64,000 bases of DNA. It comes from a virus. Lineage: Duplodnaviria; Caudoviricetes. The translations under genes and the position numbers were made by a program. The stretch spans positions 1 through 64,000 of IMG/VR virus record IMGVR_UViG_3300032038_000060; one strand, given 5' to 3'. Of the stretch, positions 1-22,996 are shown in pieces (the stretch's first letter is position 1; each line of letters starts with the position of its first letter). The notes under the pieces were generated by a model. The model searched no databases. It was not told the DNA's origin and worked only from the letters and a program-made list of their open reading frames with translations.

Positions 1-293
1 ATGCGCTTTGCACAAATCAAAAAAAAAAGCCGAAATAAGTGGCGATGAAAAAAAAACTATACAGCGACAACACAAAAAAACAAAGAATAAAGTTATTCAT
101 TCTACATGTTCGCGCAGTTGCAATAACTTTATCCTTTAAGAAAAATGGTATAGAGAATCCTTCTCTTTATATTAGATATAAGGTAGATAGTATCTACTAT
201 AGAAACCAGTAATACTATTTCTTCATTCTATATATATATTATAAAGGTATAACGCGCATACACACGCACGTATATATATAATAAGGTACGCAC

Positions 294-644
294 CTACCAA
301 CTGACGCCTAATTTCTTCATGGCTTTGTTGGCATACTGCAAAGTGCCGGGGCCAATGCCGTCCAAGTCGAGCAACTGACCTGGAGTCATGGCAAGGAACT
401 GGCTGAAGGTGGTGACTCCCTGCTTTGCCAGAGCATTACGGAGTCGGGCGGCATAGGCTTTGTGTTTTTTGCCGAACGCCTCGCAAAGATCGTCCATTGT
501 AAACGTTACTTCCTTAGGGCTTTCACCTTCAGCAACGGTTGGTGTCATGCTTTCGGCTATGGCTTTGCGTATCTCACCCAGCTCATACTCCACCTTCTCA
601 ATCCGCTTCAGTATAGCGGCCACGCTTTGTTTACTCTTTTTCAT
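294..644 (-). CDS. Small protein with a C-terminal RNA polymerase alpha-CTD-like (helix-hairpin-helix) domain
   Basis: Start MKKSKQ at 644, since a promoter box at 670-677 lies inside the longer ORF call. The C-terminus RLRNALAKQGVTTFSQFLAMTPGQLLDLDGIGPGTLQYANKAMKKLG follows the alpha-CTD pattern R..N.L...GI.T..DL...T..LL.....G..SL..I...L...G. Confidence 0.65.
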   Translation of the reverse strand: MKKSKQSVAAILKRIEKVEYELGEIRKAIAESMTPTVAEGESPKEVTFTMDDLCEAFGKKHKAYAARLRNALAKQGVTTFSQFLAMTPGQLLDLDGIGPGTLQYANKAMKKLGVSW

Positions 645-669: not shown

Positions 670-677
670 CAAAGGTA
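670..677 (-). promoter_or_regulatory. Bacteroidetes sigma-A type -7 box (TACCTTTG)
   Basis: caaaggta at 670-677, 26 nt upstream of the ATG at 644. No clear -33 TTTG box. Confidence 0.6.
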
Positions 678-782: not shown

Positions 783-891
783 CAATTAGTTAATTCACAT
801 TGATGCTTTTCGTTAATCCAATCAATTGGTTTTCGTTAATTGGCATTTATTCGATTAGTTAATATATAAACCATTTAAACATTTTTCAATC

Positions 892-5500: not shown

Positions 5501-8500
5501 CGTACTCCTTTGGCAGACCTCATGGCTGTATCGGCAAGTGCCGGACAGTTGGGTTTGAAGACCGAGGAGGATATCATGGGCTTCACCGAGGCGGCTAACA
5601 AGATGATGATTGCCTTGCCTGAAATGGGTAAGGAGGCTGCAACGGAAATGATGCGTGTAGCTATCGCGACAGGCGAGGTTGACAAGATACGCAAGGAAAT
5701 GAGCCAAGGTTTGATAGAGGGTAGCAGTGCTACGGCTGTGGCAATGGAGAAAATTGCATCTACCGTTGACCGTCTGCGTGCAAGCAGTGCAAGTACGGCT
5801 CCTGAAATTACGGACTTCGTAAAGCGTGTTGGTGCCGTTGGTGCTCAGAGCGGCATATCTATTGATCAGGTAGCAGCCCTGGGTTCTACCATCAGTTCTC
5901 TTGGTATGCGTGTTGAGATGTCGGCAACGGCGTTGTCTCGTATGATACCGGCTATCAAAAACAATGCGTTTTCTGTAGCCAAGGCTATTGGAGTAACACC
6001 TGAGACCCTGCGTAATCTGTTTGAGACAGGCAGGGGTATGGAGGCAATACTGCTGATATTCCAGCACCTGAAGGATGCAGGCAAGGATGCTGACTCCATC
6101 GAGAAAATGCTGGGGCTTGGCGGTATGCAGGACGTGATGAAGCAACTTAACCAACAGGGTGCCAGGGCCGGCATCGTGTTTGCGGGTTTGTCACAAAACG
6201 TTGACGAGTTGCGCAAACAATTGGGTGTAGCTAATCAGGCTTACGAAGAGAACATCGCCATACAGCGGGAATTTGACCGTATGAACGATACCGCCGCCGC
6301 AAAGTGGGAAAGACTGAAAAACCAGTTTGAGGAGTTCTTTATAGGCGATGCCTCACAACGTTTCATGGGTGGACTGATCGATACTCTCCGTGGTTTTGTT
6401 GATGTCCTTACAGGAAACGTAGGTCCTGCTCTTCAGACTGTCACAGTACTTATTCACACATTCCTTGCATATTGGGGTGCATTGAAACTTGGTTTGGGTG
6501 AAGCTATTTTTGTCAAGGCATGGGAGGGCCTAAAGAATTTAGGCACGACCCTTTCTGGACTTACAACGACAACACAAAGGACTATCGTCTATACCAAATT
6601 ACTTGCAAAAGCAAACGAAGAACTGGCGGTAGCAACAACAGCAGTGGCACAAGCTGAAACAAGACAGAAAGTTGCCGCCATCGAGGCACGCATGGCACAG
6701 GAGGGTTTGAACAAAGCTATGGTTGCAAATATATGGATGGCCGTAGCTGTGGCCGTCGGAGCTTTAGTTCTTCAGGTTGTAAGATGGATAGATGCTGCCA
6801 ACGAGGCTGGCAAGGAGGCCGCTAAATTTGAAAGCGAACTGATAAGGGAGCAGATACAGGTAGATAATCTGACGGAGTCCATCGGTAAGGCAAGAGCAAA
6901 AATTGACGAGACAAACAAGGATGTTGAAAAGGCGCAAAAGGCTTTTAATGAAGCAAAGAAGAGTCTCGATGGCACTCGCGAGAGTACAGACAGACTGACA
7001 AAGGCCGAGACGGAACTGATAGAAAAGCAGGAGGCACAGCGCAAGGCTCTGGCCGAGCACAAGCGAATGATTGAACAGTTTAACACAGAGTATGGCAAAT
7101 ACCTGGGCTTTATGCTGAGTGAGGTTTCTTCAAACATTGAACTGGCACAGGCCCGCGAGTTAGTTAATGACAAATTGCGTGAGACTATCACCCTGAAGAA
7201 AAGGGAGGCTGCTATTACCCGTGTGGAGAATAAATACGGAGAAGATAGGGACGATGCTTATGCGTCTCTATTGGGTGCTGCACGCTATGCTTCCACCTCA
7301 AAAGACAACACTGGGAAAATGGTGCAAGACCCTACTAAGGCTGCAAAGGTAATGAATGCCATAACGAAGGCTGCCAATAATGACAAGCTGAGCAGGGAGC
7401 AATTTGAGAAGACCATTACAAGTTTCTTTAAGGAAAACAAGGTTGGCTACCGAGGAACGTCTTTGTTGAGTAAAGCACTCGATTACTTTGACGAGGTGAA
7501 AAAAGTCCGCGAGAAGACTAATGACGTGCTGGAACAATACAAGGGTGAAGACAAGGCTAACCGCGAGCAGTCACAGAAAGGACTGGAGCGACAGTACACA
7601 GCAGCCGTCGGCACTTACCTGGACCTTCAGAGAAAATACGTGAAGGCGACAGGTGATGCAAGAAAGCAGGCTGCCGCCGACATGCTGAAGCAGATGGACA
7701 GCATCAATGAGATGGTGGATAATTCCTCCAACTACTTTGACATGACCGAAGAAGATGAAAAGAGGTCGTATAACACCTTTATAAAGAATGGCGATGCTCG
7801 TCTGAAAGGTATGAACGCACAGCGTGAAAAACTTCTGAAAGAGGCAGGCAATGCCTATCAGTCGCGCAAGAAAGTAGGCGGTGGAGAGACTTCATCCATC
7901 AAGACTAACCCTTGGGGCGGCAGCCATGAGGCAGAGAGCATTGACTGGAAGAACATGAATGCCGATCAACTGGTGGCACGCCGCAAGCAGATGAATGAGT
8001 TCGTAAAAGCCATTCAGACAGACAGCGATGTTCAGAGCGTACTGAAAGAGGATGCCGCACTAAAGAAAGCCATCGAGAAGGGTATGTCGAGCGATATGCG
8101 TACCGTCATAGAATGGTATAACACAGAGCGCCTGAAGATACAGGATGAGTTGCATGCCCGTCACCTGACCAATACCGGCGACTGGCAGGATCCAAAGAAG
8201 CAGGCGGCCCGCAAGAAACAGTTCACGGATGAGATGAAGGCGTATCTGGAGGAACTGGATGCATACTATACAGAGCGCAACCAGAAGATTCAGAACGCCC
8301 GCAACGATGAGGAGATTACAGAAGGCGAGGCATGGCGACAGACCATTGAGAACGAGAGTGAATGGCATCAGCGCAGGGCCGAGCTGCAGAAGATGTACTC
8401 TAACAAGAGTGCCGAGGTGGTGAAGGATGAACAGGATGCTATTCACAGTATCATTGCCAAGAGGACCGGTGACGATGTTGCGTATATCGAAAAGAGCATA

Positions 8501-22567: not shown

Positions 22568-22996
22568 ATGACACCGAAAGAGAATTGCAAACGTTTTGTT
22601 TCTGCTGTGTCGAAGCGCAGCGGGATATGTAAGGCGACTGTCGAGCAGGTGCTGCCGGCAATATTTGACGAGATACGTTATCAGTTGGTAGAGGGTAAGA
22701 TTCCACATGTGCCTATTGATTCGTTCGGCACCTTTGCCATAAAAGAGATGCCGCAACGTCAGTATCACTATACTCGCGGCGGTAAGGATGAGTTGCGCAT
22801 TCTGGAGGCAAAGAAGATAATAAAGTTTGCTCCGGCACATAACCTTGCCAAAGAGGTGAAGTGTGGGGTATTTGACCCTACGCGAAGAGCATTCACCCGT
22901 CATCCTGACGACCCGATAATCAGGCGTCGCAAGAACTTTAAGTATAAGCCTTTGATAGGAGATATACCGAAGGGGCAAGTAACGGTTATAGGTTAA
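22568..22996 (+). CDS. HU/IHF family DNA-binding protein
   Basis: 'VSKRSGICKATVEQVL...IDSFGTFAIKEMPQR...IIKFAPA' is the HU/IHF signature. Confidence 0.85.
   Translation: MTPKENCKRFVSAVSKRSGICKATVEQVLPAIFDEIRYQLVEGKIPHVPIDSFGTFAIKEMPQRQYHYTRGGKDELRILEAKKIIKFAPAHNLAKEVKCGVFDPTRRAFTRHPDDPIIRRRKNFKYKPLIGDIPKGQVTVIG

Follow-up and report, generated by a model that had tools for sequence, protein, structure and literature searches.

The C-terminal domain of the RNA polymerase (RNAP) alpha subunit (alpha-CTD; PF03118) has a five-helix, double helix-hairpin-helix (HhH) fold, which is represented in the PDB by entries 1LB2, 3N4M, 3K4G, 1DOQ and 8HVR (chain K). In the E. coli subunit, RpoA, the DNA-binding surface known as the '265 determinant' consists of R265, N268, C269, G296, K298 and S299, and R265 is the residue most needed for the binding of UP elements. 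HhH domains read the shape of the minor groove, and the same general double-HhH arrangement is found in the N-domains of Rad51 and Dmc1 and in HHH_5 (PF14520).

Free proteins of the alpha-CTD type are widespread among phages, mobile elements and bacteria of the candidate phyla. Several proteins of tailed phages, which carry a free-standing alpha-CTD-like domain in a chain of about 100-160 aa, have been labelled 'RNA polymerase, alpha subunit, C-terminal' (BFVD A0A6J5L490 and A0A6J5NZM6; A0A5Q2WLP1 of the Mycobacterium phage Mithril; A0A2P1JY10 of the Rhodococcus phage Finch). A search of the literature found no functional study of free alpha-CTD homologues.

Here we describe a gene of this kind that is carried by a Bacteroidales (rumen/gut) phage-plasmid. 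The stretch of DNA that was analysed, hereafter the window, has a length of 64,000 nucleotides and is the leftmost part of an IMG/VR virus record of 72.8 kb, the CheckV completeness of which is 61%. The gene comprises 116 codons, with the ATG at positions 642-644 and the stop codon at 294-296 of the minus strand (Table 1). In a search of 5.8 billion proteins (E ≤ 0.001), we found at least 37 homologues of 104-124 aa and 55-96% identity, all of which share the start Met with the 116-aa protein. Because these 37 homologues begin at the same Met, a TTG-extended frame of 132 aa was rejected as the gene, and the -7 box of Table 1 falls within the discarded extension. Two plus-strand ORFs, 460-663 and 462-803, were likewise rejected as genes and represent antisense shadows of the coding sequence. 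The dN/dS ratio in comparison with the 75%-identical copy of locus L005 is 0.14, with dS being near saturation. The gene is thus real, conserved and under purifying selection. Neither the gene nor the protein has a match in the phage GenBank collection at the DNA or protein level, and a comparison with PHROGs and NCBIfam gave, apart from a weak match to PRK07758/rpoA, nothing but spurious coiled-coil matches to tape measure and phasin entries. The family is unannotated ('hypothetical') and so far confined to Bacteroidales-associated elements.

Table 1. Coordinates of the alpha-CTD-like gene, its parts and its flanking elements in the window.
Feature	Position	Strand	Basis
alpha-CTD-like coding sequence (P0001), 116 aa, stop codon included	294..644	minus	ORF, 37 homologues, dN/dS
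Amphipathic helix, residues 8-33, conserved heptad core, probable coiled-coil oligomerisation element	546..623	minus	AlphaFold pLDDT ~90; conservation
Flexible variable linker, residues 34-49	498..545	minus	pLDDT < 50 at residues 36-44; column entropy 1.72
alpha-CTD-like (HhH)2 domain, residues 50-116	297..497	minus	Fold, profile, residue mapping; column entropy 0.66
Bacteroidota-type -7 box TACCTTTG, 25 nt before the ATG (predicted function)	670..677	minus	TAnnTTTG consensus; kept in relatives
Alternating purine-pyrimidine hairpin tract, ~20 nt past the stop codon, probably a terminator or stabiliser	248..276	minus	Folding

The AlphaFold2 model of the protein, which was calculated from a 24-sequence alignment and has a mean pLDDT of 85, consists of an N-terminal helix, a disordered linker and a compact five-helix domain, with the pLDDT reaching 93-95 across residues 50-110. 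The preliminary description of this locus had recognized an alpha-CTD pattern at the C-terminus and had pointed to a generic HhH or SAM domain as the competing assignment. On its own, the window protein is matched by HHH_5 (16.3 bits, E 0.014, for a cut-off of 27 bits) on a par with PF03118 (14.5 bits, E 0.03, for a Pfam gathering threshold of 23.8). At the family level, PF03118 matches 23 of the 24 members with a best E of 4.9e-6, and HHH_5 matches 19 of them with a best E of 2e-4. Two relatives have precomputed PF03118 matches, and the best PDB matches of the family profile are alpha-CTDs (1doq, E 0.0097). Furthermore, the family profile, when searched against 1.8 billion representatives, pulls out proteins that pass PF03118 at E values of 1e-10 to 1e-49; among them are tandem arrays as well as proteins fused to sigma-70 region 4 or to another helix-turn-helix (HTH) domain.

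A comparison of folds gives a similar picture. The top PDB matches of the model in Foldseek are RNAP alpha chains or alpha-CTDs with a probability of 1.00. Upon VIA re-alignment, in which model residues 40-116 cover residues 246-314 of the E. coli subunit, the first 31 entries are all alpha-CTDs (Z 8.9-7.6, rmsd 1.3-2.9 Å over 53-68 residues), and the best of them aligns 68 residues with a Z of 8.9 and an rmsd of 2.1 Å. The N-domains of Rad51 and Dmc1 rank after them with Z of 7.6-6.8. The lead of alpha-CTD amounts to about one unit of Z, and for small helical domains a Z below 8-9 is no more than moderate; alpha-CTD thus ranks first, but the margin is not wide. No other solved fold comes as close to the modelled C-terminal domain as alpha-CTD does. 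The assignment of the preliminary description is borne out at the family level.

The residues of the domain were mapped with hhalign and MAFFT onto E. coli RpoA (L004) and onto a Bacteroidaceae RpoA (L009), and the result is consistent with the structural offsets. The latter sequence is a genuine 330-aa rpoA product (81 bits) from a metagenome-assembled genome (MAG) that also carries a member of the present family. The domain has about 20% identity to the CTDs of both RpoA proteins. Four residues, D52, R67, G98 and L102, which correspond to E. coli D259, R265, G296 and L300, do not vary, either within the family or in the two RpoAs. N70, the counterpart of N268, is present in the closer members and is lost in the distant ones, and T101 stands in for S299. 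C269 is replaced by Ala and E261 is not retained. In place of K297 and K298 there are Pro and Gly, so that the hairpin reads GIGPGT, which is of the generic HhH type and is invariant in the family. In addition, a nine-residue basic insertion, CEAFGKKHK, is found ahead of the Arg helix. The residues in common with the RpoA CTD are those of the core and of the DNA-contact positions, and not those of the activator-contact surfaces. The invariance of R67 and of the hairpin residue G98 argues that contact with DNA is retained in the family, as far as the alignment can tell. The alpha N-terminal dimerisation and assembly domain (PF01000/PF01193), on which the formation of alpha2-beta-beta' depends, is absent from the 116-aa protein according to domain searches, and without it the protein cannot be a polymerase subunit.

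The N-terminal coiled coil that had been proposed for this protein corresponds to the confidently modelled helix of residues 8-33. Positions 15, 18, 22, 25 and 29 of this helix are occupied by I, L, M, V or F in all 24 sequences of the alignment, and hydrophobic residues are found at positions 8 and 11 in 83% of them. These hydrophobic positions are spaced 3-4-3-4 with charged residues in between, a pattern that in sequence terms is a coiled-coil signature, and the helix has weak GCN4-type matches. The helix probably oligomerises the protein. The linker that follows it is the most variable part of the family alignment and contains insertions and deletions; its column entropy exceeds that of the C-terminal domain more than twofold (Table 1).

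The host-type -7 box that the preliminary description had placed ahead of the gene is present on the minus strand. TACCTTTG fits the Bacteroidota -7 consensus TAnnTTTG, and on the strength of this consensus we take it to be the promoter of the gene. The 8-mer itself shows no enrichment across the window (45 copies, with 37 expected), and the box is found at an equal distance before the ATG in a 66%-identical relative (L002/L012; TATCTTTG) and, as a one-mismatch variant, in L003/L007. In both of these pairs it comes after a terminator-like hairpin of the upstream gene. Downstream of the gene, the purine-pyrimidine tract folds into a hairpin in four of four loci, with z of -4.95 in L002, -4.52 in L003 and only 0.06 in the window copy. 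With a TAnnTTTG box upstream and a hairpin downstream, the gene has the appearance of a transcription unit of its own, made up of promoter, gene and hairpin.

Past the stop codon there is conserved, repeat-rich non-coding DNA (window 1-293, L002 1819-2600, L005 10358-11370). It contains copies of TACCTT(T)ATAATATATA and long A/T runs in addition to the purine-pyrimidine hairpin, and in L002 (2170-2540) there are three tandem repeats of about 125 nt each. Five of six assemblies, that of the window included, break 0.3-1 kb past the gene. A telomere or packaging-site role of the purine-pyrimidine tract was considered and dropped, as the gene is internal in contigs of 108 kb and 99 kb. Rfam and tRNA scans of the flanks of the gene gave no matches.

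On the other side of the gene, a late-motif variant had been noted in divergent orientation, and we found it on the plus strand at 747-782 in the form TGCCCTTG-N20-TAAATTTG, with the same 20-nt spacer as in the other copies. The TGCCCTTG element occurs 11 times in the window against 2.6 expected. The record contains nine exact copies of GCCCTTG-N20-TAWWTTG (the TGCCCTTG-N20-TATTTTG class), whereas the reversed control contains none, and each of these copies is located 20-65 nt ahead of a gene start. In the window, the motif is found between 747 and 63054. The copy at 747-782 heads away from the alpha-CTD-like gene and towards ORF 892-1464, an HU-HIG gene (PF18291, 28.5 bits) with a long acidic, Asn/Gly-rich tail, and is predicted to be the promoter of that neighbouring gene. 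Virion genes and HU-type genes carry this special motif, and the alpha-CTD-like gene has the host-type promoter.

Downstream of the -7 box of the plus-strand promoter (775-782) and ahead of the start codon of the HU-HIG gene (892), the window contains four copies of TT(C/A)GTTAAT in exact 23-bp phase (786-863, plus strand). This is the sole such array in the record, and owing to its position between promoter and start codon it looks like an operator. The idea that the alpha-CTD-like protein uses it as its own operator was rejected, since only the window has this array, and G003, a relative that also carries the gene, lacks it.

The explanation that we favour, with a probability of roughly 0.5, is that the protein is a free-standing alpha-CTD homologue, probably an oligomeric DNA-binding module, which serves the element as an accessory transcription factor or architectural factor. 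With a heptad helix and a flexible linker in front of the CTD, the protein resembles a 'mini-alpha' that is devoid of the polymerase-assembly domain. In this model, the helix would oligomerise the protein, probably into a dimer in which, as in alpha2, two alpha-CTD-like heads are held by flexible tethers, and the heads would bind DNA via the minor groove and the backbone with little sequence specificity. The protein would then assist the element as a DNA-binding accessory factor. It might modulate transcription by occupying A/T-rich upstream DNA that is otherwise used by the RNAP alpha-CTD, or it might be an architectural partner for the HU-type proteins that are encoded nearby. As the gene has a host-type promoter, the protein could be synthesized ahead of the genes of the TGCCCTTG class.

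The main rival, which we consider possible, is a generic (HhH)2 DNA binder that is unlinked to transcription, i.e. an architectural or a replication/recombination accessory that would act on the downstream repeats or beside HU. It draws on the equal standing of HHH_5 and PF03118 for the window protein taken alone, on the GIG type of the second hairpin and on the placement of the Rad51 and Dmc1 N-domains in the fold search. It also draws on the G003-type contigs, in which the gene comes after an HU gene within an early region that contains Rep_3, DnaA_N and ParA genes, with 1.4 kb of repeat-rich DNA devoid of ORFs behind it. In the window, however, the gene is more than 14 kb away from the replicon genes. 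Moreover, the R-x-x-N helix fits alpha-CTD and not the Rad51 N-domain, and the family-level sequence and profile searches single out PF03118 relatives.

The association with HU requires some care. The window encodes two HU-type proteins, both on the plus strand: the HU-HIG protein that adjoins the alpha-CTD-like gene and a classical HU (22568-22996; PF00216, 47.5 bits). It is a homologue of the latter that immediately precedes the alpha-CTD-like gene in the G003-type relatives, and HU synteny was rejected for the window, where this HU is located at 22.6 kb and not beside the gene. The adjacent HU-HIG matches none of the ORFs in the related loci at E ≤ 1e-5, not even the HU-HIG of L005. In four loci (the window, L002, L005 and L017) a gene for HU or HU-HIG is found next to the alpha-CTD-like gene or in its vicinity, and this proximity may reflect merely the typical content of Bacteroidales mobile elements.

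The other neighbourhoods vary as well. In L003, a gene of the GreA/GreB family (6682-7134, 150 aa) precedes the alpha-CTD-like gene by about 870 nt and itself comes after genes for a DinB-like polymerase, a NUDIX protein and an SNF2 helicase; the alpha-CTD-like protein of this element is identical to that of a red-deer Bacteroidaceae MAG contig. In L005 (7686-9998) and L006 (1585-3897), a 770-aa TnpB/Cas12f-like ORF (OrfB_IS605, Cas12f1-like_TNB) ends 3 nt before the alpha-CTD-like ATG and replaces the usual promoter region. Since this ORF is found in these two loci only, it represents a lineage-specific insertion, and a functional link to TnpB was rejected. On two contigs of a distant lineage (L020 749-5824; L021), the gene of the full-length member P0053 (118 aa) is embedded in a type I restriction-modification (R-M) operon, with hsdS on one side and hsdR on the other, and overlaps the end of hsdS by 8 nt. 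The other members that were checked are found among small unannotated genes.

Larger relatives of 273-320 aa (P0044, P0189 and P0051) carry the helix and CTD module behind a domain of about 175 aa, which is also found alone (P0196 and relatives). This domain is unannotated and is modelled by AlphaFold with a pLDDT of 93.6, and in an unbiased search its best fold matches are almost all HTH domains of the Xre/lambda-repressor type, with a Z of only 5-6.7. One such fusion, at L017 6001-6963, belongs to a Bacteroidales chromosomal island with VapE-like, HU-HIG and HTH_3 genes. As the neighbourhood differs between relatives, the context gives no firm functional anchor. The recurring company across these contexts is that of DNA-binding proteins of mobile elements.

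The preliminary description had gone further and proposed that a free, dimerised mimic of alpha-CTD could be a decoy for host activators or help to direct RNAP to the phage promoters. In the form considered here, the mimic would draw activators or UP elements away from the host RNAP, or it would be an early co-factor for the TGCCCTTG-N20-TATTTTG promoters. The alpha-CTD identity on which this proposal was built stands, by the fold and by R67 and G98, whereas the decoy of activators and the redirection of RNAP are without support, and we regard this reading as unlikely. The presumed tethered-pair architecture, which would be like that of alpha2, is compatible with it, and so is the division of promoters between this gene and the virion and HU-type genes. 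Searches for sigma-70 region 2, region 4, region 4_2 and GreA found none in the 61%-complete record; that no sigma factor was found to explain the motif speaks for this reading, but with 39% of the genome missing it proves nothing. Against the titration of activators there is the low identity to the Bacteroidaceae RpoA CTD, in which the activator surfaces are not among the common residues, and family members are also found outside phage settings.

The co-occurrence of the gene and the motif across relatives is partial. The motif is present in the close relative G003 (108 kb, 91% complete), which encodes a 66%-identical protein and has four TGCCCTTG-N19/20-TAnnTTG sites (62327, 68888, 90186 and 99581), including the related form TGCCCTTG-N19/20-TATCTTG. 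This co-occurrence is not independent, because G003 and the window phage share many genes. In two of three other carriers the exact motif is not found on the carrying contig; these are G001 and G002 (MAGs, Prevotellaceae/Bacteroidaceae, with copies of 49-57% identity). The motif copy next to the gene serves the HU-HIG side, and A/T-richness is not a consistent feature of the DNA ahead of the motif copies. As HhH domains respond to minor-groove shape, recognition of a G/C-rich 8-mer is also unlikely. In short, there is no evidence that links the alpha-CTD-like protein to the TGCCCTTG motif. The most elaborate version, in which an early-made, dimeric 'mini-alpha' competes with or complements the host RNAP alpha-CTDs and switches transcription to the TGCCCTTG-N20-TATTTTG class, we consider highly doubtful; if true, it would be a host-takeover mechanism that has not been described for any phage.

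That the family serves R-M systems, with the phage copy mimicking or interfering with them, is a long shot that takes its cue from the position of P0053 and from an ArdC-like anti-restriction gene about 5.6 kb downstream in the G003-type contigs, but the hsd context was rejected as a general one because it is confined to one lineage and absent for P0057 and the other members checked, and there is no mechanistic link between the alpha-CTD fold and type I R-M.

The reading of the protein as a free alpha-CTD homologue has consequences beyond this element. The family is a compact and conserved test case, in which helix, linker and alpha-CTD are contained within 116 residues, the key Arg is kept and the carriers are gut and rumen Bacteroidales elements. 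If such proteins compete with RNAP for upstream DNA or activators, they would constitute a new route by which phages and plasmids seize control of transcription in the host. Should they be no more than generic binders of DNA, phage annotations that read 'RNA polymerase alpha subunit' are misleading.

Compared with the described systems, the window protein is closest in fold to the RpoA alpha-CTD, with which it shares the five-helix double-HhH fold, the D-D-L motif, the equivalents of R265, N268, G296 and S299 and a preceding flexible linker. Unlike RpoA, it has a heptad helix as the likely oligomerisation element, judging by the model, instead of the alpha N-terminal domain, and it differs from the alpha-CTD itself in the basic insertion, in the Pro/Gly pair of the hairpin and in the loss of E261. 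With the Rad51 and Dmc1 N-domains and HHH_5 it has the general arrangement and the GIG-type second hairpin in common; however, its first helix bears the R-x-x-N of alpha-CTD, and the family profile retrieves PF03118 proteins and not recombinases. The fusions of HTH domains and alpha-CTD in phages and mobile elements share the alpha-CTD-like module, which is combined with sigma-70 region 4 or HTH_17 in P0128 and P0134, and the Xre-like fusions P0044, P0189 and P0051 additionally have the heptad helix and the T-L-D-D-L...F-G-K-K signature of the window protein. In contrast to these fusions, the window protein has no sequence-specific HTH and is a bare helix-linker-CTD module. The labelled phage proteins are its top matches in the viral structure library, and its neighbours in the ESM Atlas include clusters of viral PF03118 proteins of similar size (110-121 aa). 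It has no detectable close sequence kinship with the labelled proteins (Foldseek E 0.05-0.6), and the present family has a heptad helix of its own. The window protein is thus an additional, unannotated member of a widespread and functionally unstudied class of free alpha-CTD-like proteins.
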